Part shown: piece after piece, positions 4,285 through 45,488 of the stretch
Numbering within the stretch: the first letter of the stretch is position 1
How the letters are laid out: the number at the start of each line of letters is the position of its first letter
Position numbers and translations under genes: made by a program
DNA from: Patescibacteria group bacterium
GTDB taxonomy: Bacteria > Patescibacteriota > Patescibacteriia > Magasanikbacterales > GWA2-37-8
DNA: 64,000 bases
Direction of reading: 5' to 3'
Assembly: GCA_041649475.1 (NCBI GenBank)
Contig: JBAZNA010000001.1
Span: 124,267 to 188,266 of the forward strand
Notes under the pieces: model-generated
What the model was told of the DNA's origin: nothing
Seen by the model: only the letters and a program-made list of their open reading frames with translations
The model's database searches: none

Positions 4285-6006
4285 TTAATTACTGGTATTG
4301 TATTTTTGTTTTAAAAGCGATTTTTTGGGGATGACGGGCCGATAGCTCAGTTGGTAGAGCATCGCGTTTGCAACGCGAGGGTCTGGGGTTCGAGTCCCCA
4401 TCGGTCCACGATTCTCGGCATCCCCCCTCTTGAGAAGGATGTCGAAGCCCTCCTTTGCCCTAATCTCAGCTATGTTCCCATCTTCAATCACCAGTTCGGA
4501 AAGCGCCGTTGTCAAGATACCGTGCTTCTGCCGCTTGGAAGCGTACTCGTAGCAAGAGCTAGCCAAACGAACGAGTTCGGAAAGGGAAATCACCGTTGCC
4601 AGTTTGTCCTCGTCCCCAACCTCCTCCTTGCGCCGCTGCGAAGCGTTGAGGTCCTCCAGCTCCGCTTCGAGCCGATGCAGCTCTGCCATGAACTCGACGC
4701 CGCTGTAGACGCCGTCCCTGAGAAGGGCGATCTTATTGTCCGTGAGGTAGGTCAGGTCGCGATTGATCACGCGGCGCCGGCTCTCCAGAGCCTTCTCTTC
4801 ATCCACCTGCTTGGTCCTGCGTTGGGCGAAGAACCGCGGCGCACGCTCGGTGAGAAGCCGCTCCTCCTCCGGTGATAGCTGGGCCTGGCTGAGCACATCC
4901 TTCACCAGCTTGTCGATCCTGAACTCCGCGAGCGTTCGGCTCTGGTTCCCGCAGTGACCCAGGCAGGGGACCGTGTAGTACACGTGCCCCTTCTTCGTGT
5001 AGGGGGAGTATGCCCTTCCGCACCCGCATCGCAGGAACCCTCGGTAGAGGTAGAACTGCTTGTTCACGTAGTGCACGCCCTGCGTTCGCTGCCGCAGCAC
5101 CTCCTGGACCTTGAAGAACAGCTCGGGCGAGATGATGGCTTCATGGATGCCCGGAGCCAACTCGTCCCCGTGTCGGATGAAACCCGCGTAGAACGGGTTG
5201 TGGAGAATGGCCTCCATCGTCTTCTCCGTCACCGGCCTGGTTACCGGCTCACCCACCTGTCCGATCTCAACGCCCGCAGCCACTTCCTGCGGGGTCCGGT
5301 TCCGACACCGCGGCTTGCTCGTCAGGCCAAGAGGTGCGGCCCACTGAGCGAGCTGAGCGTAGCTCCACTGACCCGTCGCGCAGCGCTCAAAGGCCCCCGC
5401 GACAATGTCAGCCTGGGAACGATCAACGGGCTTGTTGCTTGGACCGTGGTCCAGGTAGCCCATGGGCGCCCGGGTCGTGCACTTGCCCTCCAGTCGCAGC
5501 TTGGAGTTCGCAGCCCGGATGTTCTCGCTGACCTTGTCCGAGTAGTGCTTGGCGAACACGCCGTCGATCGACTTGTGCAGCCGGCCAGAGCTCGACTCAT
5601 CATAGTTCGCCAGCACGTAGCGGACATCACGTCCGCCCTCGGTGAGCGAGTCAATGACACCCTCGTCCTGCTTGTTCCGGCTCAACCGATCCAAGCACAA
5701 CGAGATCACTCCCTTGAACTTGCCCTGGTCGAGCAGTACGGCCAGTCGCCGGAACTTCGGGCGGTCGATCTTCCGTTTGACTGTGCCGTCAGCGAGAATC
5801 CGCGGCCGTTTCGTCTTGTACGCGGTATGCTTCTCAATGATGGCGCCGTGTTCGCAGAAGCCCACCTCAGTGAAGTCAGCGATCCGGAGGCCATTGACCC
5901 GGGCGTGCTCGCGCCCTCGTTGGAGTTGATACTCGATGGTGTTCTGTTGATTATCAACGTCGGCAGTACTTCGTCGTGCGTAGAGTAGGTATTCATCTTG
6001 ATACAT
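4285..6006 (-). CDS. Large serine recombinase (integrase); the 3' end reads through the att junction into antisense tRNA-Ala
   Basis: N-terminal resolvase catalytic domain (YARRSTADVDNQ, catalytic Ser), recombinase domain and Cys-rich zinc ribbon (CGCGRAY...CLGHC), coiled-coil; likely start at ATG 6006 (ORF open from 6072); the last ~35 codons are encoded by tRNA antisense and host DNA. Confidence 0.85.
   Translation of the reverse strand: MYQDEYLLYARRSTADVDNQQNTIEYQLQRGREHARVNGLRIADFTEVGFCEHGAIIEKHTAYKTKRPRILADGTVKRKIDRPKFRRLAVLLDQGKFKGVISLCLDRLSRNKQDEGVIDSLTEGGRDVRYVLANYDESSSGRLHKSIDGVFAKHYSDKVSENIRAANSKLRLEGKCTTRAPMGYLDHGPSNKPVDRSQADIVAGAFERCATGQWSYAQLAQWAAPLGLTSKPRCRNRTPQEVAAGVEIGQVGEPVTRPVTEKTMEAILHNPFYAGFIRHGDELAPGIHEAIISPELFFKVQEVLRQRTQGVHYVNKQFYLYRGFLRCGCGRAYSPYTKKGHVYYTVPCLGHCGNQSRTLAEFRIDKLVKDVLSQAQLSPEEERLLTERAPRFFAQRRTKQVDEEKALESRRRVINRDLTYLTDNKIALLRDGVYSGVEFMAELHRLEAELEDLNASQRRKEEVGDEDKLATVISLSELVRLASSCYEYASKRQKHGILTTALSELVIEDGNIAEIRAKEGFDILLKRGDAENRGPMGTRTPDPRVANAMLYQLSYRPVIPKKSLLKQKYNTSN
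4336..4408 (+). tRNA. tRNA-Ala (anticodon TGC)
   Basis: Cloverleaf folds by eye: acceptor GGGCCGA/TCGGTCC with G3:U70 Ala identity pair, anticodon loop TTTGCAA, T-loop GGTTCGAGTCC; CCA not encoded. Confidence 0.9.
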
Positions 6007-6025
6007 ATGATTGTGATTAGTTGTC

Positions 6026-6277
6026 TTACGTAATACCATCGCCACAGTCGGCTGGGGGAACAAGCTGCCCATCGCGCATCACGAATCCTCGCGCGAGCAG
6101 CTCGTAGAGGATTGTACGAATCGCAGTGAGAAAACCGAGTAGCTGGTTCGCGGCCTCGTTTGATATGCCGCCAAGGGCTTCCGCAGATTGAGATGGTCGT
6201 GGTGAGCGTGTGTCATGAATCATAGACTCATCACGATACGCCATGTTCCTGGTCGGCGTAAGTAGTGAAATCGGCAA
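6026..6277 (-). CDS. Hypothetical small protein upstream of integrase (possible Xis/RDF-like; speculative)
   Basis: 83-aa ORF co-oriented with and immediately upstream of int; no recognisable motif. Confidence 0.25.
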   Translation of the reverse strand: MPISLLTPTRNMAYRDESMIHDTRSPRPSQSAEALGGISNEAANQLLGFLTAIRTILYELLARGFVMRDGQLVPPADCGDGIT

Positions 6278-13668: not shown

Positions 13669-14688
13669 ATGGAAGCTCTGCACTGCAGCCGGCCCAGGCA
13701 CTGGCGCGACAACATCGTCGCGGTCAGCCAGCCCATGCGCCGGCTGCTCTCCCTCATCGACAGGATCGCACCTTCGACTCTGCCGGTCCTCATCCTCGGT
13801 GAGACTGGCACCGGCAAGGAAGTGCTCGCCCACGCCGTCCACGAGGCCAGCGGCCGCAGTGGGCCGCTCGTGGCCCTCAACTGCGCGGCGGTTCCTTCCG
13901 GTCTGGCCGAGAGTGAGCTCTTCGGCCACGTGCGCGGCGCTTTCACCGGCGCCTCGAGCGCCGTCCCGGGCTTGTTCGAGCAAGCCGACCACGGCTCGTT
14001 GTTCCTCGACGAGATCGCCGAGCTCGGCCTGCATCTGCAGGCGAAGCTCCTGCGCGCTCTCGAAGAGGGCACCATCCGTCGGCTCGGCGCCACGGCGCTC
14101 GTCACGATTGACGTTCGCATCATCGCGGCCACCAGCCGGAACCTCTCCTACCTCGTTGACCTCGGCCGGTTTCGCGACGACCTCGTGCAACGGCTCGCTG
14201 GCGTCGTGCTCCAGATTCCGCCGCTTGCTCAACGGCCCGCAGACATCGAGCCCCTGGCTCTTCGCTTCCTGCGCCAGGCCGTGGGAGACAGGAGGCCACC
14301 GGAGGTATCGCCCCTGGTCTGGCCCTGGCTCACGAGCCAGCCCTGGCCCGGCAATGTTCGTCAGCTCAAGCTGGCGGTCGAGCGCGCGGTCGCGCTCGGC
14401 GAGAACGTCCTTTCGCCGCAGCACTTCGAGACCGGAGGCTCCAGTTTCCGCCTCTGCGACTCGGGTGTTCCGGAGGCTTGGCTCGAGAACAGGAGCTGGC
14501 TCCGGATTGAGCGGGAGATTCTGGCCTGGGCCGTCCGGCACTACGGCTCTATCCGAGCCGCAGCCCGGGCACTCCAGCTGCCTCGCTCGACCCTCGCCGG
14601 GCGCGCTAGCAAGCTCGAGATCAGGGCGAGCGCTCTCGCACGAGGCGCCGACATCCCGCTCACCGGCCACAACCCCAACCAGGAGTAG
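13669..14688 (+). CDS. Sigma-54-dependent transcriptional activator, AAA+ core plus C-terminal HTH, no sensor domain (PspF-like)
   Basis: GETGTGKE Walker A, ESELFGHVRGAFTGA (GAFTGA motif), C-terminal Fis-type HTH. Confidence 0.8.
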   Translation: MEALHCSRPRHWRDNIVAVSQPMRRLLSLIDRIAPSTLPVLILGETGTGKEVLAHAVHEASGRSGPLVALNCAAVPSGLAESELFGHVRGAFTGASSAVPGLFEQADHGSLFLDEIAELGLHLQAKLLRALEEGTIRRLGATALVTIDVRIIAATSRNLSYLVDLGRFRDDLVQRLAGVVLQIPPLAQRPADIEPLALRFLRQAVGDRRPPEVSPLVWPWLTSQPWPGNVRQLKLAVERAVALGENVLSPQHFETGGSSFRLCDSGVPEAWLENRSWLRIEREILAWAVRHYGSIRAAARALQLPRSTLAGRASKLEIRASALARGADIPLTGHNPNQE

Positions 14689-14692
14689 ACCC

Positions 14693-14908: not shown

Positions 14909-15063
14909 TGATCGTCTCGCTCTCACGCCCCGCAGCCCAGGCGCTCCAGCTTCCCCCCCCAACCCTCGCTGGCCGCGTCAGCAAGCTCGAGATAAGCATC
15001 CGCTCCCACGCGCACCTCACCGACTCGGAACCCATCAACCGCAACCTCGACCAGGAGTAGACC

Positions 15064-17531: not shown

Positions 17532-17648
17532 GCTAATAAGGGACGAATGTCCCTCGTGGGCTTCTAAGAAGGAGGTGTGAGAAGTCCAAGAGGGTACGGA
17601 CTTCCTACTGACCAATCATGGTCAGAGCGCAACCCAAACGAGGTACTA

Positions 17649-18398
17649 ATGAAGGAAAGGAGTGCCATAGGAGGCCATTCTCGTTTTTCCAAAGAGTCAG
17701 ACCATGCATCCGCGCAGACCGCAAACATACCCAACCCAGATGTCGCGCGTGTGCCTGACCGTGACGAGCACCGCACGAAGCAGCACCAATATGCCCGGCC
17801 CCCCGTTGCGCGGCCCCTTCCCGACGCGCTCGTGACAACCTCGGAAGCGTTCGTCGGTCTGCTCGTGCGGGTGCGCTGCCTCGCAGGTGGATTCTGCTAC
17901 TCCGGGCCAGTAGTCTGGAGAATAAGCCCAGGCTTCCTTCGCGCGGAGGACATTGCCTCAATGTGGCATGGTGACCAATTCGGATCCTCGGATCTAGCCT
18001 TGGGCGAGCTTCTCCGCCCGGAGCACACGCCCGACTCGCTGGCAATGTTCATTCCACGATGGTTCGTTGACGCCGTCTCCCTGCGACTGACTCAGGAAGC
18101 CGCCGTGGTTGCTGCGAAGATCTCTCATCTTGGACTGCCCGCGGCGCTCCTCCTACGTCGAGCGACTCTATCCATCATGCTGGCCCTCCTTCATTCGTAC
18201 GCCCTGACGTTCGGGGAGCCGCTATCATTGCTTCCCTTTTGGATTCGGACAGGGACCATCCTCCGTGATGGAAGACGGATCCAACTGTCCAGCGGACGAG
18301 ATGGCCCGCTACTCAGGGCCGTCCAGGACGACTCGAGTGACGACACCCACACGATTGCATTTCCTCTCGTGTGTGGCGCGTTCAAGGAGTGGACGTAG
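17649..18398 (+). CDS. Hypothetical protein
   Basis: ORF 17577..18398; likely start at ATG 17649 with GAGG RBS; no recognised domain. Confidence 0.3.
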   Translation: MKERSAIGGHSRFSKESDHASAQTANIPNPDVARVPDRDEHRTKQHQYARPPVARPLPDALVTTSEAFVGLLVRVRCLAGGFCYSGPVVWRISPGFLRAEDIASMWHGDQFGSSDLALGELLRPEHTPDSLAMFIPRWFVDAVSLRLTQEAAVVAAKISHLGLPAALLLRRATLSIMLALLHSYALTFGEPLSLLPFWIRTGTILRDGRRIQLSSGRDGPLLRAVQDDSSDDTHTIAFPLVCGAFKEWT

Positions 18399-18404
18399 GC
18401 TACC

Positions 18405-18434
18405 GAGACCCCGCAATCGTGGGGTCTCCTTTTC
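18405..18434. terminator. Bidirectional terminator hairpin (GAGACCCC-N8-GGGGTCTC, then CTTTTC) between convergent genes
   Basis: 8-bp perfect stem, T-rich tail. Confidence 0.5.
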
Positions 18435-18441: not shown

Positions 18442-19458
18442 CTATTGGCATCTACCTTCAGAGGGGGGGACAGGTTGCCTCTCGGCCGCGAACGCCTTCT
18501 CCACAACCTCGCGCAGCACTAATCCCTTCCCGAACTCGCGAAGCGAGGTCACGATTGGAGCAGAATACCCATACGACACGCGCCTGTACGCGCTTGGTAC
18601 GGGATAGAGAATACGCACCGCCGGGTGCTTGGACCAGTAGAAGTACAACCCAAGACATTGGATCTTGGTGCAGATTGGTACCACCACGATTCGTGGTTGA
18701 ACTCGCCACAGTCGAAGAACACGTTCGCGATGCTGAGCGATGATATCGCGCAAGCGTGATGAGAAGTCGCGTGGTGAAAGGCTGGGCACAAGTTCGGCAA
18801 ACACGTTGTGATGTGCAAGCAGTGGACGATTGACTTCCAGCGCAGTCGTCACGTAGGTCATCGCTACTTCCGGTTGCGTCCAGGGGACGCCTATGGCGGC
18901 AACCGCTATTGCAGGGTCGAGTTCGAGCATGGTTGACAGTCCGCGATCCCCCTCGTAGCCCGCAAGTATGACGGCGAGCAGGGGGGACTGAGGGCTGCAA
19001 AGACCCTCGAATCCAAGCACAGCAACACATTGACGGTGACCAGTACCGGACTCGCCCTGAGCATGTGCCGTATGTCTGGAGCCGCCAACATAGACGACAT
19101 GGCTGATGCGGCCGTACAGCTGATGCAGCAATCGCAGTATGTGGAGCTTGGTCAGACAGGAAATATCAAGGACTATCTCCTTCGCGTCTCCAGCACAGGC
19201 CGCGACTGACCTGACAATCTGGATCTGTGACGAGATGTCACTGCGTATTACCTCATGCCGCACGCCCGCGTCAGCGACCATGAAATCGCATCGATTGACA
19301 TTCGCTATCAGTGCCGGTACCAGCTCCTCGGCTGTCTGATCATAGCGAATCGACAAGACGAGGTCGGGTCTGAAGTTCGACAGGCCGTACTCAAGTGCAG
19401 GCGCACACCGCTCCTCGAAGCTGTACGCATGCACCAAGACTCTAGATGCGTTCGTCAT
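18442..19458 (-). CDS. Hypothetical protein, co-translated partner of the SIR2-STAND gene
   Basis: 338 aa (ORF extends to 19548; start ATG 19458 with GAGG RBS); 17-nt overlap with the upstream gene; no recognised domain. Confidence 0.55.
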   Translation of the reverse strand: MTNASRVLVHAYSFEERCAPALEYGLSNFRPDLVLSIRYDQTAEELVPALIANVNRCDFMVADAGVRHEVIRSDISSQIQIVRSVAACAGDAKEIVLDISCLTKLHILRLLHQLYGRISHVVYVGGSRHTAHAQGESGTGHRQCVAVLGFEGLCSPQSPLLAVILAGYEGDRGLSTMLELDPAIAVAAIGVPWTQPEVAMTYVTTALEVNRPLLAHHNVFAELVPSLSPRDFSSRLRDIIAQHRERVLRLWRVQPRIVVVPICTKIQCLGLYFYWSKHPAVRILYPVPSAYRRVSYGYSAPIVTSLREFGKGLVLREVVEKAFAAERQPVPPSEGRCQ

Positions 19459-21832
19459 TGGGGACCTCAGACTCGCCAGCGAGAGGCAGCTGCATTTGAA
19501 GCGCGTCCGAGGGCAAGAGTGCCGCGAGGAACCCCTGCGGGTTCTCAACAGCCAGCTTCAAGTGCTTGGCCTGTAGTTCTCTCTGATGATGGTCCTCCAA
19601 GCTCAAATGGTACCGAGGGCACAGCAGGCGATGCAGCCGGTACGCGCTCATCGGAGTCAGCTGCGCTGGCGATAGGGACTGCCGGAGATTGGCACGCTGT
19701 AGTACTCCCAGCGTCAAGCAACCTTCAAGCAGTTCCCGAGTCGCCACGTCGAGATTTCCCGGGTCGGTGACGACGAAGCGGAGCGTCCTTTGAGATGTCT
19801 TCTCGGCGCGGCGCTTGCTGTACTCCGCCAGACTATCGAGCAAGATTCCTATGCGATGGCCGGCGGCGCCTCCCCTGCGAGTCTCAGACGAGAAGACGTG
19901 CGAATGGTCGCTGATGACGCGACTCTGAATACGAACGTCAATGGGAGACGACAGGCGCTTGGGCTCGACGTTGACGCTTCCTTGTGCGTCGGTGACGATG
20001 TCTTTGCACAGCTCGAGGAACTTCGAAATGTGACCAGATGAAAGCCGGACGATTTCGTTGAAGCCTGCGTACCCGCTCTCCGGGGGAGTCTCAAACGCAG
20101 GCAGAAGCTCCCTTATCGACGCAAGCGCAGAGCCGAAATTGGAGAGGCGTCGGTTGGCGATGTCCTCAACGTAATGGGGATATCGTTGGCTTGCGCCCCC
20201 GAAGAGCAGCTCATGGTCAAGGTCCGCAATTCGATAGTCTTCATTGGGCTGCAGGGTTCCGAGAGCGGCTCCCGACAACGCGGAGTATGCGCACGCAACC
20301 TTGACGTCGAACCTCCTTGCGGAGATCCAAGAAGCGATGGGATCGAACTGCTCATCGGAGCCCTCGAAGTCGTCGATCATCAGGACGAGGCGTTGGCGTG
20401 CAAGCGGTGGAACCTGTGCGGTGAGAAGAGATACCAGGTCAGAAACGGTGGTGGCCCCAGTACAAGCAGACGCATCAATCCTAGAGCGGTCAATCAGAGA
20501 ACGGGCCTTGCGGATCTCGAACGGTAGGTGTTGGAGAGGAACCTCAGCCGCATCGTCGGTCAAGCGGAGCAGGACGCAAATATCGCGCAGTGTTCGGGCT
20601 CCGGCGAGCAATGTCGGGAAACGATTGCACACCGCGCACAGGCACTCCATGATGCTCTCTGCTACGACTAGGTTCAGGTAATGCTGATAGAAGAGCCGCC
20701 ATTGGCCGGGGTTCTCTTCGGTCAGTCGTTGAGTAGCCATCCGGATATCGCGTCCGAGCTTCACGTAGACGGCCAGGGTAGCAAGTGCGGACGGGTCCGC
20801 CATCGTTTCGAGGTGCCCCCGCGTTGTGAGGGCTCGGAGAAGCATGGATTTCCCGGTGCCTCGCCCTCCGAGCAGGATTGTGTTGCCCGGCGACGTGACC
20901 GTGCCGGTCACGGTCGGGTGGTTAATGAACAAACTCACAACTAGGGAGTCATCTGGAATCTGGTCTGTTTTCCAAAACAAGAACGGATTGGTCGCCTCGG
21001 GCAGGGTCTCCTTCTCATGACGGGCCAAGGCGCGCCCCACTACGGGCTCGTTTGTTTGAAGTGCCTGCGTGTGACTTCGCAGCGCGCGGAAGAACTCACT
21101 CGCATTCATGGGTACTGGTACTACTTCGGCGAGCTCGCGAAATCGTCCTACATCCTCGAGATGAGGATGAGGATTGACGACGAAGAGCAGCGGTTTCTGA
21201 CCAGAGGCTTTCAGGGAGAGAAACCACCGTATGCAGTTGGCATCGCGGCCACGGAAGCCAACGAACACGAGGGGACCGCCTACGCAGAGCGTGACGATTC
21301 TCGGCAGTACGAGTTGCAGGTACTTGACGCATCTCTCCTCGATGTCAGAGTCGGTAAGACAATAGGGGCCCGCCCGGTTGATGCACCCATATATTTTGTA
21401 GAGCTTGCGACTAGTCGGTCGCTGGTCAGCCTGAGGAATATCCTGATCGCAGGTCACCACTTCTAGGTGCGTCGAGTCGTGTACCGTCTCTAGGAGCGTG
21501 TCATAGTTGGTCGTGACGATGTTGTCGATTCTCTCCAAGTCACGGAATAGCTCATAGGGCTGGCGACTCGCGGCCTTCTGGCTCTCCTTCAGTGTGTTCT
21601 GAACGAACGCGTCAAGTTCCACCCTCATGCGTCCCGTGCCGAGGAACCGCTCAGCGACCATCCCGAGGTCGTCCGTAGGGGGAAGCTCGAATCTCTTCGC
21701 GATTAGGCGAGCAAGTTGAGCCGCGCTCGGAAGGCCCGCGTCGATGCCGACGCCAGCACCGAGGAAGAACATCAGCCTGCCTTGCCTCAGGTAGTCGGCC
21801 AAGATGCGGACGGGATCGGGTACTTGGCTCAT
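19442..21832 (-). CDS. SIR2-like (SIR2_2/DHS-like NAD-binding) domain fused to STAND-type P-loop NTPase, Avs5-like architecture
   Basis: N-terminal FFLGAGVGIDAGLP...IVTTNYDTLLE...YKIYGC...FVGFRGRD (SIR2_2 motifs); central Walker A LLGGRGTGKSMLL and Walker B LVLMIDDFE; helical C-terminus; RBS AAGGGGG. Confidence 0.75.
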   Translation of the reverse strand: MSQVPDPVRILADYLRQGRLMFFLGAGVGIDAGLPSAAQLARLIAKRFELPPTDDLGMVAERFLGTGRMRVELDAFVQNTLKESQKAASRQPYELFRDLERIDNIVTTNYDTLLETVHDSTHLEVVTCDQDIPQADQRPTSRKLYKIYGCINRAGPYCLTDSDIEERCVKYLQLVLPRIVTLCVGGPLVFVGFRGRDANCIRWFLSLKASGQKPLLFVVNPHPHLEDVGRFRELAEVVPVPMNASEFFRALRSHTQALQTNEPVVGRALARHEKETLPEATNPFLFWKTDQIPDDSLVVSLFINHPTVTGTVTSPGNTILLGGRGTGKSMLLRALTTRGHLETMADPSALATLAVYVKLGRDIRMATQRLTEENPGQWRLFYQHYLNLVVAESIMECLCAVCNRFPTLLAGARTLRDICVLLRLTDDAAEVPLQHLPFEIRKARSLIDRSRIDASACTGATTVSDLVSLLTAQVPPLARQRLVLMIDDFEGSDEQFDPIASWISARRFDVKVACAYSALSGAALGTLQPNEDYRIADLDHELLFGGASQRYPHYVEDIANRRLSNFGSALASIRELLPAFETPPESGYAGFNEIVRLSSGHISKFLELCKDIVTDAQGSVNVEPKRLSSPIDVRIQSRVISDHSHVFSSETRRGGAAGHRIGILLDSLAEYSKRRAEKTSQRTLRFVVTDPGNLDVATRELLEGCLTLGVLQRANLRQSLSPAQLTPMSAYRLHRLLCPRYHLSLEDHHQRELQAKHLKLAVENPQGFLAALLPSDALQMQLPLAGESEVPNDERI

Positions 21833-21927
21833 GAAGCACCCCCTTACAGAGGCAGCCTATCATGGTCAAGGAGCCACGTCAGCTGCGTGAGGAAGTTGGC
21901 CGGATGCCGGCTTGGCCAGGCAGGATG

Positions 21928-21950
21928 CGCGTGTAATTCCAATTACATGC
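21928..21950. repeat. Recombinase-site-like element CGCGTGTAATTCCAATTACATGC (7-bp inverted arms); left partner of 23577..23599
   Basis: TGTAATT-CC-AATTACA internal palindrome; inverted partner downstream; third partial copy GTGATTCCAATTCC at 21997. Confidence 0.4.
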
Positions 21951-22019
21951 TATTATGTGATTGACACGGGCAAGCGAGCGCGTAAGCTCGGAGCCGTGAT
22001 TCCAATTCCTCCCCAGGAT

Positions 22020-23012
22020 ATGAATGAACTGGCTCGGTCCTTTGAGGGCTATCTGCGCGTCGAGCGCGGCCGTAGTCCGATGACCATCAAGCGCTATCTC
22101 TCGACCCTCACCAAGTTCGCCGCCTATATTGACGCGGAGAACGCGGACCTGGTTCTTGAGAAGGTGGTCAAGGCCGACCTGGTCAAGTTCCTGCGGCAGT
22201 CAGCCGGCGACGGTAATGAGCCGTCGCGGACCACCTGGAATCTGGCCCTCGCTTCGCTTCGCTCGTTCTACGAGTATCTGTTCAAGACGGAGGTCATCAA
22301 CGTGAATCCGGCCATGCGTATCGACCGGCTCAAGACCAATCTTCGAGAGCCGACCCCTCTGTCCCTGGACGAGTACCTTGCCCTGGTCGAAGCAGCGGAG
22401 CAGCTATCAGCCAAACCTGTGCGTTCGCGGAACGCGGTCATCATCCACGTCCTGTTTCACTCCTCGCTCCGCGTGCGTGAGGTCTGCTCGCTCAACCTCG
22501 ACCACCTGGACTTTGACAATCGATGGTTTTCAAACATCAGGACTAAGGGAAGCAAGTGGCTGTCGCTTCCCTTCAGCGACCTGGTATCGGCCGCCCTTGA
22601 GCGCTATCTCAACGATCGCACTCATCTGGCGGCCAACAAAAAAAACGGCGAGCCCGAGCTCGCCCTGTTTCTCTCCACCAGAGGCACCCGCCTCTCAATC
22701 CGCGCCATCGAGGAGATGGTCACAAACTGCGCCCAGCAAGCGGGGATCTCTCGTTCGGTCGGCCCCCACCTGGTCCGCCACTCTGGGGCCACCGGAATGT
22801 CCGAGTTGGGTACCCCGCTATCCGTTGTTCAGGAAATCCTCGGCCACGCGTCAGTATCGACGACCCGTCGCTATGTCCATGTCCGCGACGTTGCCAGGCG
22901 AAACGCGGTTGATTCCCTCGGGAAGGAGGTCACGAAGCGACTTCGTGACCGAACTCGCAGGCCGTCTCGTCGTTCCACCAGCACACCCGACGTCGGATTC
23001 AACGAGCAGTAG
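22020..23012 (+). CDS. Tyrosine recombinase, XerC/XerD-like
   Basis: N-terminal SAM-like domain (FEGYLRVERGRSPMT...), catalytic RVREV..., LVRHSGAT, HASVSTTRRYVHV (R-H-R-Y). Confidence 0.8.
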   Translation: MNELARSFEGYLRVERGRSPMTIKRYLSTLTKFAAYIDAENADLVLEKVVKADLVKFLRQSAGDGNEPSRTTWNLALASLRSFYEYLFKTEVINVNPAMRIDRLKTNLREPTPLSLDEYLALVEAAEQLSAKPVRSRNAVIIHVLFHSSLRVREVCSLNLDHLDFDNRWFSNIRTKGSKWLSLPFSDLVSAALERYLNDRTHLAANKKNGEPELALFLSTRGTRLSIRAIEEMVTNCAQQAGISRSVGPHLVRHSGATGMSELGTPLSVVQEILGHASVSTTRRYVHVRDVARRNAVDSLGKEVTKRLRDRTRRPSRRSTSTPDVGFNEQ

Positions 23013-25145: not shown

Positions 25146-26606
25146 CTATTCCTGAGAAATGCAGGTCCTCATGCGCCAGTATTCCTGAAGCGCCAGTGCA
25201 GCGAGGTTCATCCATTGACGGCCGCTATCGTCCTGACGCCAGTTGGCGAGTAAGTTGAAAACTGAGCGCCTGTCAGTGCTAATCCAGTCCAAGCGGCCGT
25301 GCTCGAACACCGCTTGGCAAGCCTCGACGCGTTCCACTATCTGGCTCTCAGGGAGTCGGGCGCGAACGTGCGCCACGACGTGTACCAGAGGGCCATTGAG
25401 ATTGTACCCGAACCAGGATACCTGTATGGGGCCGTGCTCACTTGGCATGAGTCCAACTTCCTCGTTCAAGCAGCGTTCTGCCAGATGAACTAAATCCTCC
25501 TGATAACCAGAAACCGCAAGCGGCGAGACCATAGTTTCATTCGGGCCAATGGTCCACATGTTCTGTGACGTTCTGACTGAACGTGAGCGTTTGATGGCGA
25601 GCAACCGACCGCTACTCGCCAATACCACTACATTCATGGCAATCACGGACCGCGGGGCGCGCCTTACCACGTCGCGCGGGGCGCTCGTTCGGAGACGCTG
25701 CTCCACATGGCTTCTTTCGTCACTTGTCATGCAGGCGTTGGCGGCCAGGAAGTCGCCATAGACGCTCGGAGCAATGTACATTCGAAAGACTTGGCCCCGC
25801 ACACTTTCGCGATGATCGATTTCGTAGTCAACGAGATGGGAGGACGGACCTCCGGGATCGGTGACGTCCTTGGTTGCGTTGGCCAGTCGTTTGGGATCCA
25901 CCCAGTCCTGTGTTGAGGGCGGGTGGACGACCACTACTTCCTGCCGATCACGCGTGAGCTGCCTTGCCGGAGACCAGCGGTTGAGGCAGATGAGGTGCTC
26001 CTGCTCGGGTTCAAACAACGGCAGCTCGCCAGTAGTCACCTGATCAGCAACCGCAGAAGCCGCCCGCCCTGTTCTCTGCTGGCGCGGGTTAGGCAAGCCG
26101 CGCCTTAGGGGGCCGCCGATTTTTCTCACCGCCAACCGCTGTGGTCGTTCGTGGAGAAGATGTCGGAACTCCCGTTGTTCTCCGGGAGTGAAGAGGAGCC
26201 TGTGGTACTTGGACCCAGCCTGCTTGATCGCATTACCCCCTTCAAACGCTTCCCACTTGCGAGCAGAACTCGCAATGCGAAACGCTTTGACTTCCTCCTC
26301 AGTGAAATTGCCCTCGATGTACTTTGAGAGAAGCTCGAAAACCGCGCGTCGGCCTGCCTTCTTGTTGGCTACCGCGGCCCAGATGACCATCTGACGTACG
26401 CCCTCGGCTATTGTTGTCTCGCGATTCTCCTTGGCCAGGGCAATGACGCGTTTTGCAAACCGATGCTGGTGTTCGGTAGCTCCCGCAGCATGCACCCCGT
26501 TGAGAGTTGCCTCTCGTCTGCGACCGCTGCCGTGATGGAGTGTCGTTGAACTGCTCCTGATCTTCACGCTGCGTCGACTGCCAGAACCTCGGGAACCGCG
26601 AGACAT
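25146..26606 (-). CDS. Large hypothetical protein with C-terminal NUDIX-like box
   Basis: 486 aa; GPNETMVSP...AERCLNEEVGL resembles GX5EX7REUXEEXGU; rest unrecognised. Confidence 0.45.
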   Translation of the reverse strand: MSRGSRGSGSRRSVKIRSSSTTLHHGSGRRREATLNGVHAAGATEHQHRFAKRVIALAKENRETTIAEGVRQMVIWAAVANKKAGRRAVFELLSKYIEGNFTEEEVKAFRIASSARKWEAFEGGNAIKQAGSKYHRLLFTPGEQREFRHLLHERPQRLAVRKIGGPLRRGLPNPRQQRTGRAASAVADQVTTGELPLFEPEQEHLICLNRWSPARQLTRDRQEVVVVHPPSTQDWVDPKRLANATKDVTDPGGPSSHLVDYEIDHRESVRGQVFRMYIAPSVYGDFLAANACMTSDERSHVEQRLRTSAPRDVVRRAPRSVIAMNVVVLASSGRLLAIKRSRSVRTSQNMWTIGPNETMVSPLAVSGYQEDLVHLAERCLNEEVGLMPSEHGPIQVSWFGYNLNGPLVHVVAHVRARLPESQIVERVEACQAVFEHGRLDWISTDRRSVFNLLANWRQDDSGRQWMNLAALALQEYWRMRTCISQE

Positions 26607-32751: not shown

Positions 32752-33963
32752 ATGGCGCGACCCAAGGAAGGACCACGCGTCCGAGGTCCGTACCGCTACG
32801 ACGGAGGACGACGATGGCGAGTCGACGTTTTCAAGGGCAGAGGCGAGGAGGATCCTGAGCTCCACTACTACGAGACGGAAAAGGAAGCTCGGCAGGTAGT
32901 CCAGTCGCTGAGAAGAGCGATGGGTCAGCAGCAGGACCGCACCATCGACGACGCCTTGAAGGAGTACGAGCGGCACATGCGGGAGAAGGGGAACAAGCCG
33001 AAGTCGATCACGGAGACGACCCGCAGACTCCGACTCTTCTTCCCGGACCTCGAGATGCCGCTCGCCGCGTTCAACTCCAGCCGCGCTCAGACGTACTACG
33101 ACGAGCTCTGCCAGCGACCAACGATGCAGCCGAAGCGGCAACAGGTCGACGGAGACGAGGTGGCGTCGCTGCGTGAACAGAAGCTCTCGTGGCGCGACAT
33201 CTGTGCCAAGCTCAAGTGCGGTCGGTCGGCTGCGATGCGCGCGCTAGAGCAGCGAGGCCAGCCCGAGCCCGAGTCCCGCAAGCTGTCAGTCGACAGCCAT
33301 CGCAACATGCTCGCCGAGGCCAAGTCGTTCACCCGCTGGTGCACGGAGGACAAGCGCTGGCTCAAGGCGAACCCCCTCGAGGCCGTCAAGGGCAAGGGCA
33401 AGCGCAAGCACGGCAAGCTGCAGCTGCGCATCGACGAGACGCGCAAGTGGGTCGCCAAGGCGCTCGAGTTGGCGGGGCAGGGCGAGGAGGGCGCGATCGC
33501 GGCCCTGCTCACGCTGTACCTCAACCTGCGCTGCAGCGAAGTGGTGACCCGAGTCGCGCGCGATGTCGACGACAACGGCCGGGTGCTCTGGGTGCCGGAC
33601 AGCAAGACCGAGAAGGGCAAGCGTACGCAGGAAGTCCCGCCGGAGTTGCGGCCGTTCCTCTTGCAGCTCACGTCGGGCAAGACCGCCGATGCCAAGCTGT
33701 TCGGCTGTGCCTCGCGCGACTGGCCGCGTCATTGGGTGCAGCGGATCTGCGCCTTGGCGGGAGTGCCCGTCGTCTGCGCTCACGGCATGCGCGGCACTCA
33801 CTCGAGCATCGCGCACGCCTTCGGCTTCACGAGCCGCGCCGTCGCCGACGCGATGGGGCATGAGTCCGAGAAGACCACGATCGAGAGCTACACGGACCCG
33901 TCGGTCGTGGCGAACGCGCAGCAGAAGCGCATGCTGCAGGTCCTGAATGGGGGCCGAGCTTGA
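32752..33963 (+). CDS. Tyrosine integrase (phage-integrase family)
   Basis: C-terminal catalytic block: RCSEV (R), HGMRGTHSS (H-x-x-R), GHESEKTTIESYT (Y). Confidence 0.8.
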   Translation: MARPKEGPRVRGPYRYDGGRRWRVDVFKGRGEEDPELHYYETEKEARQVVQSLRRAMGQQQDRTIDDALKEYERHMREKGNKPKSITETTRRLRLFFPDLEMPLAAFNSSRAQTYYDELCQRPTMQPKRQQVDGDEVASLREQKLSWRDICAKLKCGRSAAMRALEQRGQPEPESRKLSVDSHRNMLAEAKSFTRWCTEDKRWLKANPLEAVKGKGKRKHGKLQLRIDETRKWVAKALELAGQGEEGAIAALLTLYLNLRCSEVVTRVARDVDDNGRVLWVPDSKTEKGKRTQEVPPELRPFLLQLTSGKTADAKLFGCASRDWPRHWVQRICALAGVPVVCAHGMRGTHSSIAHAFGFTSRAVADAMGHESEKTTIESYTDPSVVANAQQKRMLQVLNGGRA

Positions 33964-35359: not shown

Positions 35360-37648
35360 CTACCCGAGCTGCCCGTAGATCAAGGTCCGCTTGACGAAGG
35401 TTTCGAGCTCAATCGGGTTCACCACCGGCGGCGCTCCTGGCCCGTTGTGGTGGAACTGCTTCGAGTAGTCGTTGATGTCCGTGAGCTCCTGCACACGCGG
35501 TTGCAGACCCACGAGGAGAGTGCCGGCGCCCGCGTTGCGGATTCTGCCGATGAAGTCGCCCAGGTAGTCCGTCGCCGGAAACGCGTCCGGGAACCGGCCC
35601 CGCAGCTGGCCCTCCAGGTACGGCCGGATCGCCCGGGCAATGGTCAGAAGGTCCCCACCAGTAGAGAGTCCCTCGTCCAGGTAGCGGCGCAGGAGGAAGA
35701 AGTCGCGGTAGGCCGCCTCCAGGCACGCCTTGAGGATGTCCCACTCCTTGATGGCGTAGGTCGCGCCGTCGCGTGTGACCTGCAGGGACTTGATCGTGGC
35801 CTTGTCGATGTTGGTGTCGTAGATGTGCTTCAGGAAGTCCGCGTCATGCGACAGGACCACCACCTGCTTGGCCTGACTGCCCAGGCGGCAAATCTCCTGC
35901 TGGGTGCAGGCTGTACGGAACACGTCGAGGCTCGAGAGCGGGTCATCGAGGACGATGACCTTCTGCGCCAGCAACGGGTCCTGCTCGAGCCGCGCCAAAA
36001 AGAATGCCAGCGCCAGGGTGCTCTTGTCGCCAGAGCTTAGGGCCGTCCGGAAGCACGGCGTGCCGCGGGGTGTCTTCTCGTCCCCTAGGTTGACGGGGGT
36101 GTTGTTGATGGAAATTTGGTAGGTGGAGCTGGCCCGGCCGCCCTGGAAGCTCGGCTTGGTACCGGTGAGGGTAAAGTTGGCGCCGAACTTCTGCAGCAGG
36201 CGGTTGATCGCCTGCTCGTACTTCTGGAGGATCGAGCCGGCGATGGTCTCCAGCTGGCTACGCGTCTTCTTCTTCTCGTCCTCGTAGTTCTTCTTCTGCT
36301 GGCGCCCGGCGGTCAGCTTGGCGCACAGGTCAGTGGCCTCGGGCTGCTGCCGGATCTGCATGTTGCGGAACCGGCGCAGCTCCCGCTCCAGCACGTCCTC
36401 GCCGGTGGCCGCGGCCTGCTTCTTGATGTCGGCGATCTGCTCGTTCGCGCGCGCGATCTGCTCGTTGACCTTGCGCACGGCGGCCGCCGCCTCCTCGAAG
36501 TCGTGGAGGGCGGCCTCCAGGTGCTCATCCTTGGACGGGGGCTCCGACGGATTGGCCAGCCGGCGCTTGAGGGCGTCGCGCAGGACCTCGCGGACGTGCC
36601 GCCAGGCATGCTCAAGCGCGTCAGTGGAACAGGTGGCGTAGCTCAGGTCGGCCAAATCTGCCCAGCCGCGGATCAGGCCGTCGTTGGCCAGCACTCGCTT
36701 CTGGACGCCGTGGAGCGCGTCGTCGCCGAGCGTCTGGTCCAGGGCGTTGATGGCTCGCTCGATGAGGACGACGTGGTCGCGGTACTTGGTCGAGAAGTAG
36801 TCGCGCAGGAGGGCGACCAGCTCGACCTTCTCGGTGGACTGGGTGCAGAACGGACAGGCGTGGTCCTCCTTCAAGTACTCGAGGCCTTGCCGCAACCACT
36901 GCTCGCCGCGACCGTCGAGGTCGTCCTGGATGTGCTGACGGACCAGCTTGTCGCCGCCCTCCGTCTTGCGCTCGACCGCGACCTGGAGGATGTCGATGGA
37001 CTTGGCCGGAACCTCAGGCACCGTGAGCGGGTCCAGCTCGCGCCGAGCGACGATCTCCCTCGACTTGCGGACTGCGCTCAGGCGAGTGGTCCGCTCGCTG
37101 ATCTTCTCCTCGAGCCCGTTCTCGGGGACGAGCGTGAGGAACTCGTCGACGCTGAACGGCGCCTGGATGATTCCCCGCAGCTTCGTCTCCAGCTCGGTTA
37201 TGTCGTGCGCCGCGGTCCGGCTCTTGGTGTCGATCTCGTCCACCTGGTGCGCGAGCGCGACCGCAGCCGCGCCCACCACGACCTCGTAGAGGTGCTTGCG
37301 GTGCTCGGACTCGACGCGGTCGCCGGTGTAGACGTTCTCGTTGATGAAGGTCGAGTCGAATATCTCCAGGTCGGGCATGGTCTGCGACCACTGGCCGCCC
37401 TGGAAGCTGGCGTTGCCCGCCGCCAGCCGGATCTCGACCGCCGGCGAGCCGTTCACGCCGAGCGTAGCGCGCTCCTGGACGTAGGCCGGGTCCCCGGTCT
37501 GCAGGGAGCGCAGGATGCCGGCGAGAGTGGTCTTCCCGTGCCCGTTGTCGCCGTAGATGAGGGTCAGCCGCTTGAACTGAACGTCTGCCTTGGCTGCCAG
37601 TTTGACGAACCGACCGACGTTCTCCACCTTGATGATTTTCTCTATCAT
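35360..37648 (-). CDS. AAA_13-family ATPase with long coiled-coil, RloC/PrrC-like (putative anticodon-nuclease or abortive-infection protein), divergent from hsdM
   Basis: N-terminal KIIKVENVGRFVK...LIYGDNGHGKTTL (AAA_13), extensive coiled-coil, conserved C-terminal domain; genomic linkage to the type I R-M. Confidence 0.6.
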   Translation of the reverse strand: MIEKIIKVENVGRFVKLAAKADVQFKRLTLIYGDNGHGKTTLAGILRSLQTGDPAYVQERATLGVNGSPAVEIRLAAGNASFQGGQWSQTMPDLEIFDSTFINENVYTGDRVESEHRKHLYEVVVGAAAVALAHQVDEIDTKSRTAAHDITELETKLRGIIQAPFSVDEFLTLVPENGLEEKISERTTRLSAVRKSREIVARRELDPLTVPEVPAKSIDILQVAVERKTEGGDKLVRQHIQDDLDGRGEQWLRQGLEYLKEDHACPFCTQSTEKVELVALLRDYFSTKYRDHVVLIERAINALDQTLGDDALHGVQKRVLANDGLIRGWADLADLSYATCSTDALEHAWRHVREVLRDALKRRLANPSEPPSKDEHLEAALHDFEEAAAAVRKVNEQIARANEQIADIKKQAAATGEDVLERELRRFRNMQIRQQPEATDLCAKLTAGRQQKKNYEDEKKKTRSQLETIAGSILQKYEQAINRLLQKFGANFTLTGTKPSFQGGRASSTYQISINNTPVNLGDEKTPRGTPCFRTALSSGDKSTLALAFFLARLEQDPLLAQKVIVLDDPLSSLDVFRTACTQQEICRLGSQAKQVVVLSHDADFLKHIYDTNIDKATIKSLQVTRDGATYAIKEWDILKACLEAAYRDFFLLRRYLDEGLSTGGDLLTIARAIRPYLEGQLRGRFPDAFPATDYLGDFIGRIRNAGAGTLLVGLQPRVQELTDINDYSKQFHHNGPGAPPVVNPIELETFVKRTLIYGQLG

Positions 37649-37756
37649 ATTAGTATTCTCAATATGTTAGCCTGCGGGCCTGGGTTCTTTGCTTAGCTCT
37701 GGGATTTCTTGCCAGGCCCTTGACGTTATCTTTGCTATAACATAAACTACAATCAT

Positions 37757-39568
37757 ATGTCAACCACAACCTCATCATTCGGCGATCGCGTCCAGCTCCT
37801 GCGCAAGCGCCTGAACCTCAGCCAGGAGCAGCTCGGGACGCGGCTGGACGTCTCCTTCGCAACCATCAGCCGCTGGGAGTCGGGCAAGTCGCAACCGCAG
37901 AAAGCCCAGCTCGCGACCTTCGACCGTCTCTGGGAGGAGACCGGCCTAGACCACGACGAAGCCGCTACGACCGCGACAACAGGCCAGCGTCGCCGTCGCG
38001 GCGTTCATCGCAGCTCCGTGCTCAGCAACAAAAGCATGGAGCAGATGCTGTGGGACGCCGCCTGCTCGATCCGAGGCGAGAAAGACGCCCCCAAGTTCAA
38101 GGATTACCTTCTGCCGCTTCTTTTCATCAAGCGGCTATCCGATGTCTTCGACGACGAGGTCGAGCGCCTGACACAGACCTACGGCGACCGCGACACGGCC
38201 CTCACCGTGCTGGAAGCCGATCACGAGCTCGTCCGCTTCTACCTCCCGCCCGAGGCGCGCTGGGCCGTCGTCAGCGGACGCGAGCCCTTCGACTGGCCTG
38301 CCACCCTCCGGCCGAAATCACTCGGCGAGCAACTCACCACCACCATCCGCGCCGTCGTGAAGCACAACCCCGAACTCGCCGGCGTCATCGACATCGTCGA
38401 CTACAACGAGACGCGCAACGGAGAGCGCGAGATCAGCGACGCCGCTCTTAAGGGCGTCGTTGAGACGTTCTCCGATCCCCGCTACCGCCTCGGCCTCCAC
38501 AACGTCGAGCCCGACTTCCTCGGCCGCTGCTACGAGTACCTCCTCCGGAAGTTCGCCGAGGGCCAAGGCCAGAGCGCGGGCGAATTCTTCACGCCGCGTG
38601 AGGTTGGTTTTCTCATGGCGGAGATCATGCGGCCCCGCCCGGGCGAGGAGTGCTACGACTATGCCTGCGGCTCATTCGGCTTGCTCATTAAGCTCCAGCT
38701 CGTTTGCCGTCGTCTGAACCCCCTCAGCAAGGTGCCACTACAGCTCTACGGCCAGGAGCTCACCGGCTCCAGCTTCGCCATCGCCTGCATGAACCGCATC
38801 ATCCACGACATGGAGGGCCAGGTCCTCCGTGGCGACTCGATGCGCAACCCGAAGTTCAGGGATGCTGACGGTCACCTCAAGAAGTTCGACGTCGTGGTCT
38901 CAAATCCAATGTGGAACCAGCCGTTCGACCCCGAGGTGTACGAGAACGATCAGTTTGGCCGCTTCGTTGAGCACGGAGGCATCACCACCAGCAAGGCCGA
39001 CTGGGCCTGGCTCCAGCACACGGTTACGTCATTGAAGGACAACGGACGCGCCGCTGTGGTCCTCGATACCGGCGCAGTCACACGCGGCAGCGGCAGCAAG
39101 AACGAGGACAAGGAACGCAACATCCGCAAGTGGTTCGTCGAGCACGACCTGATTGACGGTGTGATCCTCCTCCCTGACAACCTCTTCTACAACACCATGG
39201 CCGCCGGGGTGATCCTTATCCTTTCCAAACGGAAGCCCAAAGAGCGACGTGGAAAGATCGTCCTTGTCAACGCTAGCAACGAGTTCACCAAGGGCACACC
39301 GAAGAACTACCTCACCGACGAGGCCGTTCAGAAGATCGGGGCTGCGTTCGTGGCAGGGAAGCCCGTTGAGGGCTTCGTGGCAGTCATTACCAACGAGGAA
39401 GCGCTGGCAGACGACTACAACCTATCGCCGTCGCGTTTTGTGCAATTCAACGGCACACGTGGCACAAATCGACCCTTGCCAGAGATTGTGGCCGACCTAG
39501 ACGCCATCGATGCCGAGCGAACGCGAATCGACAAGGAACTGCGGCGGGTTCTGGAGCAGCTACTATGA
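37757..39568 (+). CDS. hsdM: Type I restriction-modification N6-adenine DNA methyltransferase HsdM, with an N-terminal XRE-type HTH extension
   Basis: First about 65 aa, [31 protein letters not shown] (HTH); then the HsdM N-domain ([11 protein letters not shown]...[15 protein letters not shown]), SAM motifs, NPMWNQPF catalytic motif. Confidence 0.9.
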
Positions 39569-40857
39569 CCAACGCTGCTCCCAAGGGATGGACAGAAGTA
39601 CCACTCGGAGAGATCGCCACCTGCCAGGGTGGATCAGCATTCTCTCCCGCGTTGCAGGGGCGCACTGCCGGTGACATTCCCTTCTTCAAAGTGTCCGACA
39701 TGAACCTGCCAGGAAACGGTTGGTTCATGCGTCGGGCAAACAACTACGTAAGCCTCTCCGACACGTCCCGTATCCTCGGGGCAGAGAAGCCATCTGGCTC
39801 TGTCATATTTCCCAAAGTAGGCGCTGCCGTGCATACGAATAAGAAGCGCCAGCTCACACAGGATTCCTTCGTAGACAACAACGTCATGGCCGTATGGTCA
39901 AAGGACCCCGAGCGCTGTCGTCCAGGATTCCTTTACTTGTATTTTCTAACGGTTGATCTCTCGACGATGTCCAACCCCGGACCCCTGCCGTCAATAAACA
40001 ACAGCAAGGTCTATGAGCAGACTATCCGTCTCCCTACGTCACTTGAGCAGGACCGCATCTGCGCCACGATGCTCACCATTAGACGCGCGATCGAGGCCGA
40101 GGAGAAGGCGATCACACTTATCCGCGAAGTGAAACAGGCCGCGCTGCTGCGCCTCTTCAGTCAGGGACTGCGCGGTGAGTCACTGCGTGACACCGAGATC
40201 GGTCTTGTGCCAGCCAGCTGGGATATTCAGCCCTTCGCCGAGCTTCGCGAGTTCTTGCAGTACGGGACCTCCGTGAAGTGCGACTATGCGCTAGAAGGGA
40301 ATCCTGTCCTGCGCATCCCGAACGTGGTTGACGGTCGAGTTGATTACCGTGACCTGAAGAGATGTCGCCTCGACAGCGATACGGTCGCCTCTCTGTTGCT
40401 CGAACCAGGCGACATTCTGTTCATTCGGACGAACGGAGTGCGCGAACGGGTGGGCACCTGCGCAGTCTACGACGGCGTTCCGGAACAGGCGCTATTCGCC
40501 TCCTACCTCATTCGGGCCCGACCTAAGCGCGGTGTTCTCAACCCCCAATACCTCCAGTACTTCACGGCAACACGCACAGGCGCATCCCAGCTCGCCGGAC
40601 GATCCTCACCGGCTGCAGACGGCAAGTTCAATATCAACACGAAGTCCATCGATGCCGTGCTAGTCCCGATCCCGTCGGAGGCCGAGCAGAACGACATCGT
40701 CGGCGTGCTCGAGACGATCGATGCTGCCGCAACCTCCTATGAACGCCGGCGAGCGACCCTCTCGGAGCTATTTGCCACGCTTCTCGAGAAGCTCATGACC
40801 GCCGACCTTCGCGTGGACCACCTCAACATCGACACTTCGCTAATGACGGCAGCCTAA
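39565..40857 (+). CDS. hsdS: Type I R-M specificity subunit HsdS (two target-recognition domains)
   Basis: ATGA overlap with hsdM; duplicated TRD architecture with conserved central and C-terminal helices. Confidence 0.85.
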
Positions 40858-40859
40858 CT

Positions 40860-43772
<2,913 letters not shown>

Positions 43773-45380: not shown

Positions 45381-45488
45381 GGGTTCTAAGGCAGTCCCGA
45401 CATGCCCGCATCGTGAGACACGCACAACACAAGCACTCGTCGGAGCGCAACACCAAGATCACCCCGGCACAGGGTGATCTTTCGTTTG
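45381..45488 (+). ncRNA. Candidate structured RNA / attenuator element, copy A (conserved boxes plus covarying hairpin plus U-tract)
   Basis: GGGTTCTAA...GCCCGCATCGTGAGACA...GATCACCC-N7-GGGTGATC-TTTCGTTTG; paralogous to 55024..55134 with compensatory stem changes. Confidence 0.4.

Follow-up and report, generated by a model that had tools for sequence, protein, structure and literature searches.

The closest described relatives of the locus reported here are systems in which an ORC-CDC6-like ATPase gene is directly followed by a gene of the CARF6 family, with an effector placed N-terminal to the ATPase or encoded upstream of it. The locus comprises two genes, A and B, in a 64,000-nucleotide (nt) stretch of a Patescibacteria group bacterium contig (JBAZNA010000001.1, positions 124,267 to 188,266), which was analysed as a whole and is called the window below; plain coordinates are positions in this window, and labels such as L001 or L002 designate the loci of relatives. 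A and B very probably belong to this family of ORC-CDC6-like ATPase and CARF6 conflict systems, and they are likely to have a role in defence. The ATPase family, the CARF6 gene directly downstream and the position of the effector are the same, but, whereas relatives carry separate HD-CE, PRTase-CE or metallophosphatase genes, the window has a SIR2 domain fused to the ATPase. The window form also differs from the other systems by the absence of a methyltransferase or DUF6884 module, and by a His148Tyr/His118 swap in its SIR2 domain. Nearly everything that is understood about CARF domains concerns their role as receptors for the cyclic oligoadenylates that type III CRISPR systems make.

The initial annotation of the locus did not recognise the pairing of the two genes as a textbook system, but PADLOC and Pfam already contain models for the combination of this ATPase with CARF6. 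We take CARF6 to be the family of Makarova et al. 2020 (NAR 48:8828), from which the PADLOC models would derive. The accessions of the Pfam families PF24389 (ORC-CDC6-like), PF24390 (PRTase-CE) and PF24391 (HD-CE) follow one another, from which we infer a common origin in Nicastro, Burroughs, Iyer & Aravind 2023 (NAR 51:11479). PMC12871103 cites Nicastro et al. 2023 as the source of Calcineurin-CE, with "CE" standing for conflict effector.

With regard to other described systems, Thoeris resembles the locus in that the SIR2 domain of A is ThsA-like (PADLOC model ThsA1, 9.5e-12 over residues 12-199) and in the analogous gating of a SIR2 NADase by a Rossmann-type small-molecule sensor; L001, a member of the window clade, also has a TIR_2 gene just downstream. 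However, the Thoeris sensor is a SLOG domain fused to the SIR2 domain, whereas the window sensor is a separate tandem CARF protein with an AAA+ ATPase interposed. Thoeris furthermore needs a TIR protein (ThsB), for which the window has no gene next to the pair; in A, the histidine of the catalytic site is replaced and the ThsA match covers only the SIR2 domain. Avs5 likewise has an N-terminal SIR2 effector fused to a P-loop NTPase switch, but its NTPase is of the STAND type and the system is a single gene, whereas A combines an ORC/Cdc6-like ATPase with a conserved, repeat-free C-terminus and an obligate CARF partner. Can1, Card1 and Can2 are type III CRISPR ancillary proteins with a fused effector domain, which is absent from B, and sequence identity to B is about 13%. 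In contrast to their setting, no cas genes and no Cas10 are found in any of the 19 loci of the A/B family (11 lineages reached from B homologues and 8 genomic loci reached from A), nor among the Pfam-scanned neighbours in the window.

PUA-Cal-HAD and Kongming are alike in principle, as a cyclase-less sensor of an infection-derived nucleotide acts on a nucleotide- or NAD-depleting effector. The signal is m6-dAMP from degraded Dam-methylated DNA for PUA-Cal-HAD, according to PMC12871103, and a base-modified nucleotide for Kongming, as the title of Zeng et al. 2025 (cited in PMC13069673) states. Their sensors are PUA or other domains without an ATPase switch, whereas the A/B sensor is a CARF protein, and homology is confined to the SIR2 domain. 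Membership in MADS was considered and rejected: only weak mad8 matches (best E-value (E) 3.3e-4) were obtained, in four of eight family ATPases and not for the window protein, and the L008 and L006 proteins match no other mad model. By the comparisons made, the system is distinct from Avs5, Thoeris, DSR, the type III CRISPR accessories and MADS.

The two genes and their junction are the following.
19442-21832, minus strand: gene A, 796 amino acids (aa), ATG start; SIR2_2 domain, ORC-CDC6-like AAA+ ATPase and conserved helical C-terminal region
18442-19458, minus strand: gene B, 338 aa; stand-alone tandem-CARF protein of the CARF6 family
19442-19468, minus strand: translational-coupling junction, with GAGG at 19468-19465, the ATG of B at 19458-19456 and the TAG of A at 19444-19442

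Both reading frames are present as first described and, as read from the sequence, overlap by exactly 17 nt; the overlap is 14 nt in homologous A/B pairs. A Shine-Dalgarno-like GAGG lies 6 nt 5' of the ATG of B, inside the last codons of A. The longest open reading frame for B begins at a TTG at 19548, but the homologues begin level with the ATG at 19458, so that B has 338 aa. The same overlapping pair of 796 and 338 aa was called independently in two assemblies (ENA ERZ27247363 and Logan SRR8542065). Gene A corresponds to NCBI MFA5061665.1, "MAG: SIR2 family protein [Patescibacteria group bacterium]", and an identical protein occurs in public assemblies. A smaller gain concerns the annotation itself: the NCBI record shortens the CARF gene to its C-terminal 162 aa (MFA5061663.1), against the homologue alignment and other gene callers, which support 338 aa, and it names neither gene informatively. 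A and B are not chance open reading frames, given the Pfam matches of A and the recurrence of the overlapping pair, in the form of full-length homologues of 42-49% identity, on contigs unrelated to this one.

Gene A is divided into three regions, in agreement with the initial annotation, which had described an N-terminal SIR2 domain, a P-loop NTPase and a helical C-terminus.
21053-21832, minus strand: SIR2 domain, about residues 1-260 (Pfam, PADLOC)
20096-20947, minus strand: ORC/Cdc6-like AAA+ ATPase core, residues 296-579 (best stretch of the PF24389 match)
19445-20095, minus strand: C-terminal helical region, residues 580-796, within the C-terminal part of the PF24389 model

Pfam matches the SIR2_2 family at residues 104-219 (E 3e-14, 53.8 bits against a cut-off of 24.5) and the ORC-CDC6-like family PF24389 in two stretches, of which 296-579 is the best (E 6e-42, 144.6 bits against a cut-off of 27); NCBIfam gave nothing near a cut-off. 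The Walker A motif is GGRGTGKS at 322-329, with K328 and an arginine inside the P-loop, and the Walker B motif is LVLMIDDFE at 482-490, with D487 and D488. In an alignment of seven family ATPases, the Walker A pattern G-x-R-G-[ST]-G-K-S is kept, including the arginine within the P-loop, the Walker B pattern is hhhhD[DE], and the C-terminal region shows the conserved motifs LSSG and YRLHRLLxPR. The GxRGxGKS P-loop agrees with an older description that ties such a type of ATPase to CARF domains, and the PADLOC model CARF6--CARF_STK_AAA matches three of the eight family ATPases (best E 1.8e-5). Judged by these matches, the ATPase is of the ORC/Cdc6-like AAA+ type and not the NACHT/NB-ARC STAND type that had been suggested for it.

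Gene B had been described as a partner without recognisable domain, because neither Pfam nor NCBIfam gives a match. This remains true for these two databases, but PADLOC models and the predicted fold identify it as a CARF protein. The PADLOC "CARF6--CARF_CARF_CARF" models match nearly the whole of B (1.1e-18 and 1.8e-18), and all 107 aligned members of the B family match CARF6 models (best 1.3e-164). A profile search with B among 1.84 billion cluster representatives (50%-identity level) returned 576 relatives at E <= 1e-3, including 128 at E <= 1e-10. The 150 best matches listed are, with few exceptions, proteins of about 300-350 aa that stand alone. The profiles of the N- and C-terminal halves of B align with each other (hhalign probability 93.7%, E 1.9e-7, 122 columns), which shows that B is an internal duplication.
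19069-19458, minus strand: N-terminal CARF-like half, about residues 1-130 (secondary structure, invariant columns)
18529-18996, minus strand: C-terminal CARF-like half, about residues 155-310 (motifs GYEGDR and PICTK265)

The CARF signature consists of [DN]x[ST]xxx[RK] after strand 4 together with a polar motif after strand 1 (PMC4012209). The N-terminal half of B exhibits S13-F-E-E-R17 (E15, R17) after strand 1 (E6-11) and D98-I-S100-C-L-T-K104 after strand 4 (E94-98), the latter fitting the signature. The equivalent motifs in the C-terminal half are GYEGDR (E169, R172) and PICTK265. The structure of B was predicted with AlphaFold2 from the 107-sequence alignment, as a 3-sequence alignment gave an unusable predicted local distance difference test score (pLDDT) of 52; the predicted structure has a CARF-type Rossmann-like fold. 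A search of the viral fold database BFVD with B returned only generic Rossmann and methyltransferase matches. Since its halves are homologous and each carries the CARF ligand-site motif pair, B is a tandem-CARF pseudo-dimer like Can1, without a fused effector.

The association of the two genes is strict. A CARF6 gene lies directly downstream of a PF24389 ATPase gene in 19 of 19 loci, archaea included, and the frames of the two genes often overlap or abut in relatives. Starting from the B homologues, the ATPase is found directly upstream in all 11 lineages, which have the following contexts.
L001, at 49% identity; L002-L005 and L013/14, at 42%
L009, L021 and L019/20; Bosea L006/7; Pseudomonas L008 and L010; L015; L018; a Spirosoma plasmid

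A genome scan starting from A yielded 80 loci: a CARF6 gene is directly downstream in all eight loci with this ATPase (E 2e-43 to 7e-93) and in none of the 72 loci with SIR2 only. The eight loci belong to Halobacteria, Methanobacteriota, Thermoplasmatota, Terriglobia, Bryobacterales, Armatimonadetes, Pyrinomonadaceae and Hydrogenedentales. This co-occurrence, together with the translational coupling, bears out the suggestion of the initial annotation that B is an obligate partner. With regard to other searches, word-indexed homologue searches gave very few matches, a genome scan with a B profile found nothing, and no homologue was found on viral contigs. Plasmids gave no match for the B protein or the ATPase of the window; one distant B homologue is on the Spirosoma plasmid. 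This plasmid, NZ_CP051679.1 of Spirosoma rhododendri (L016/L017), carries a complete operon of Dcm methyltransferase, HD-CE, ATPase and CARF6 genes, whose ATPase gene spans the origin of the record and is hence missing from the plasmid gene table.

In contrast to this constant pair, the effector is exchangeable. It always occupies the same site, either the N-terminus of the ATPase or the gene just upstream, and the fused SIR2_2 domain of the window is at this site.
SIR2, fused to the ATPase: window, L001, L002, L009, L021, L022, L024
HD-CE (PF24391), separate gene: Spirosoma, L063
PRTase-CE (PF24390), separate gene: Bosea
Metallophos, separate gene: Pseudomonas
unknown domain of 215-250 aa, fused to the ATPase: L026, L031, L045

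The domain listed last is shared by three Acidobacteriota-type ATPases (L026 4260-5000, L031 4359-5000 and L045 4350-5040), has no Pfam match and is a candidate for a new type of effector; in these three loci, the CARF6 gene has a DNA methyltransferase gene downstream. The Bosea PRTase-CE (L006 3076-3999) matches the PADLOC "PRTase_III-A" models at 8e-34, which links the effector of this non-CRISPR system to a type III-A CRISPR-associated PRTase family. Across the 19 lineages, a DNA methyltransferase (D12 Dam-like, N6_N4 or C5 Dcm) accompanies the core in eight and a gene C/DUF6884 module in three. The SIR2 clade with the canonical histidine always comes with an unknown protein of about 370 aa, which has no Pfam match, and a DUF6884/YaaA-like protein, giving a conserved four-gene version (L009 661-2613; L022 8472-10020; L024 8407-9732, where the two are fused). 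No methyltransferase, gene C or DUF6884 homologue is present in the modules of the window, L001 and L002, whose pairs sit in different neighbourhoods; the window clade is the stripped-down, minimal two-gene form of the family. The TIR_2-domain gene of L001 (4723-5556, 277 aa) lies 292 nt downstream of the CARF gene and has no counterpart in the window or in L002; its product could generate a signal or serve as a second NADase.

We propose, as the most likely mechanism, that A and B may act as a ligand-gated, ATPase-driven module that depletes nicotinamide adenine dinucleotide (NAD+) and thereby aborts infection, and we give the complete chain an even chance of being correct. Through translational coupling, B would be made in fixed proportion to A, with which it would associate. 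The pseudo-dimeric CARF pocket of B would bind a nucleotide-derived small molecule arising during infection, and, because no cyclase is encoded in the module, this ligand may be phage-made or damage-derived. The bound ligand would either release or promote ATP-dependent oligomerisation of the AAA+ module, which would gather the SIR2 domains and turn on NAD+ consumption. The loss of NAD+ would then arrest the infected cell, or a cell invaded by a competing mobile element. We infer the A-B complex, the ligand, the direction of regulation and the chemistry of the SIR2 domain from CARF effectors, oligomerising SIR2 defence proteins and recent cyclase-less nucleotide sensors such as PUA-Cal-HAD.

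Several points weigh against this mechanism. The module is without a signal-generating enzyme (Cas10, mCpol, CD-NTase or TIR), and a full-text literature search, with Makarova 2020 and Nicastro 2023 outside its coverage, found no description of this system and no experimental study of any family member. The methyltransferases in eight of the 19 relatives, and the DUF6884 module in another clade, hint at a self/non-self discrimination based on DNA modification, which the window locus lacks. The other points concern the catalytic site of the SIR2 domain, and in particular two codons.
21478-21480, minus strand: His118 codon of gene A
21388-21390, minus strand: Tyr148 codon of gene A

The SIR2 domain, which PADLOC also matches with PDC-S25 (6.7e-12), exhibits GAGVGIDAGLP at 25-35 (G-rich loop), TTNYD at 107-111 (with N109 as the catalytic asparagine), KIYG at 146-149 and FVGFRG at 190-195. 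All motifs quoted in the initial annotation are thus present, but what it called a KxYG-like segment is the site of the catalytic histidine, which is occupied here by Tyr148. The catalytic histidine of defence SIR2 NADases is not found in A: KIYG aligns with KLHG, KFHG and KFHG of 7uxt, 9v0g and KomC, respectively, the last being among the best sequence matches of this domain in the PDB (6.7e-5). PDB entries name mutants of the aligned histidine as inactivating, namely H146N in KomC and H171A in DSR2. Tyr148 is shared by the window, L001 and L002, whereas L009, L021, L022 and L024 have histidine at this site; L002 has, in addition to Tyr148, a threonine in place of the catalytic asparagine. 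Because its catalytic histidine is replaced by tyrosine, the NADase activity of A is less certain than first assumed, and it may be altered or lost.

A first alternative is, therefore, that the SIR2 domain is not a NADase but a regulator that binds NAD or ADP-ribose, or an enzyme with another chemistry such as ADP-ribosyl transfer, the output lying elsewhere, for example in an action of the ATPase on DNA. This would accord with the alignment of Tyr148 with a histidine whose mutation inactivates KomC and DSR2, with the retention of the tyrosine in all three lineages of the clade, with the threonine of L002, and with the separate TIR_2 gene of L001, which could supply a NADase or signalling activity. 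Nevertheless, the SIR2 domain is constrained (39-45% identity, with all other SIR2 motifs kept), and the window pair encodes no other effector, although relatives always have a catalytic effector at that place. The exchange of residues in the domain is moreover reciprocal: the three sequences with Tyr148 have His118, the four with His148 have tyrosine at the equivalent site, and canonical SIR2 NADases have alanine or leucine at the position equivalent to 118 and histidine at that equivalent to 148. As His118 occurs exactly where His148 is lost and Tyr118 where His148 is kept, a relocated catalytic histidine fits better than simple decay, which, with three against four sequences, is only suggestive. 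Taken together, we consider it rather unlikely that the SIR2 domain has no NADase function.

Similarly doubtful, in our estimation, is the boldest form of the proposed mechanism, namely that a CARF sensor outside CRISPR and without a dedicated cyclase would read a phage-made or damage-derived nucleotide and fire, through an ORC/Cdc6-like AAA+ switch, a SIR2 domain with a relocated histidine. The pair would then be a reduced, two-gene derivative of a family whose other members carry DNA-modification genes. If true, this would define a class of input ligand that is new to CARF domains, and a SIR2 domain whose active site is non-canonical.

A second alternative is that the system senses DNA in the manner of restriction-modification, the ATPase recognising unmodified foreign DNA through a C-terminal DNA-binding region and firing the effector, with CARF6 as a modulator or off-switch; the window clade would have lost its own methyltransferase and would depend on one provided in trans by the host. 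ORC/Cdc6 proteins are known to bind DNA. The three classes of methyltransferase among relatives (Dam-like D12, N6_N4 and C5 Dcm) would fit self-marking better than the sensing of one modified nucleotide, and orphan-looking methyltransferases are encoded elsewhere in the window (48510-49460, and hsdM at 37757-39568). However, the modules of the window, L001 and L002 are devoid of a methyltransferase in their different neighbourhoods, and the conserved CARF pocket argues for a small-molecule input. Sequence and profile searches of the PDB with the ATPase returned P-loop-only matches and no related solved structure, and DNA binding is only putative for this ATPase family. We regard this alternative as unlikely.

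In a third alternative, corresponding to the Avs5-like logic favoured by the initial annotation, A would be a single-protein sensor whose C-terminus recognises a phage protein, and B would be accessory. The order of SIR2 domain, P-loop NTPase and helical C-terminus does resemble Avs5, and A has a match to AAA_16, which is below threshold. In contrast, no NACHT, NB-ARC or nSTAND match was obtained with Pfam and no AVAST/Avs model matched at E <= 1, the PADLOC matches of A being limited to SIR2-type models, while the core matches PF24389 far above its cut-off. The C-terminus is also the reverse of a variable sensor: it is without repeats, matches homologues in the C-terminal part of PF24389 (profile positions 410-564), and its last third is the best conserved part of A, with 55% and 47% identity to the two close homologues against 45% and 39% for the SIR2 domain. 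As B accompanies A without exception and has the domain type of a sensor, a single-protein sensor appears very unlikely, and a small-molecule sensor acting through an AAA+ switch on an effector is put in its place.

The surroundings of the pair contain the following features.
4285-6072: large serine recombinase gene (Resolvase and Recombinase domains), adjoining tRNA-Ala (4336-4409)
18405-18428: GC-rich hairpin with a 10-bp stem, between the convergent 3' ends of B and of the gene at 17577-18398
21833-21911: divergent intergenic region of 79 bp, between gene A and the tyrosine recombinase gene
21912-23012, plus strand: tyrosine recombinase (integrase Pfam match, 1.1e-34)
within 35360-43772, minus strand: AAA_13 ATPase of 762 aa, adjoining the Type I restriction-modification genes, in the region after a second integrase
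37757-43772: complete Type I restriction-modification system hsdMSR, with hsdM at 37757-39568 carrying an N-terminal helix-turn-helix (HTH)
48510-49460: N6_N4 DNA methyltransferase, overlapping the start of a 626-aa AAA_21/AAA_15 ATPase gene (the two together at 48510-51337)

Immediately past the tRNA-Ala, the guanine-cytosine (GC) fraction rises abruptly, from about 0.43 to about 0.6, which probably marks the left end of a large high-GC element integrated in a lower-GC genome labelled Patescibacteria, or else a chimeric join; a search for att sites found no repeat of the 3' end of the tRNA-Ala. The high-GC region encodes a TraG/TrwB-like ATPase, a sigma-54 activator, a CHC2/Toprim primase and a SprT-like protein, followed by the A/B pair. 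Beyond the tyrosine recombinase are a Replic_Relax (relaxase-like) gene and the second integrase (32752-33963). These genes, that is the two types of recombinase, the relaxase-like gene, the primase, the TraG-like ATPase and the Type I system, support the view that the pair is carried by a mobile element, in surroundings that resemble a defence island. The initial annotation also saw the pair as bounded by terminators; one strong hairpin is present at 18405-18428, but it is oriented for the convergent gene, because its T-run is on the plus strand only, and the other side is the 79-bp divergent region. This region is presumed to be the promoter region of the pair, although no consensus sigma-70 site was called in it.

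The two genes might also be an addiction module of the element, in which B restrains a toxic A that is freed upon loss of the element. In favour of this are their overlap and translational coupling, their place on a mobile element beside recombinases, and the ParE-like and HTH genes that adjoin the L002 pair. We nevertheless consider it highly improbable: typical antitoxins are labile, whereas B is a large, structured protein that resembles a ligand sensor; the modules of the family include effectors of the defence type as well as methyltransferases; and non-mobile contexts occur too (L002 beside NADH dehydrogenase genes). Such a role would in any case be compatible with defence rather than mutually exclusive with it.

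Some further observations were made in the window. The arrangement of the AAA_13 ATPase with the Type I system is reminiscent of PrrC/RloC-type modules, and the N6_N4 methyltransferase and AAA_21/AAA_15 genes form another candidate defence pair. A 134-nt direct repeat of 71% identity (14558-14691 and 14930-15063) encodes paralogous open reading frames of about 70 aa with the motif VGPF.ND.EA..W...HP; it sits between the sigma-54 activator and primase genes, and the contig of one independent assembly ends nearby. A 40-nt direct repeat of 83% identity (45381-45420 and 55024-55063, 9.6 kb apart) may flank a nested element. A Nudix-like motif seen by eye in the open reading frame 25146-26606 had no Pfam support and was discarded.

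The family thus comprises a large group of CARF proteins in bacteria and archaea, with 576 representatives, tied to one AAA+ ATPase and to a swappable effector that targets nucleotides or NAD, apart from cas genes and from any cyclase. The two-gene SIR2 form of the window is its simplest version to clone, and the reciprocal His/Tyr exchange offers a direct way to ask whether a SIR2 NADase works with a relocated catalytic residue. The ligand of the CARF6 family would reveal the infection signal that is read by cyclase-less systems.

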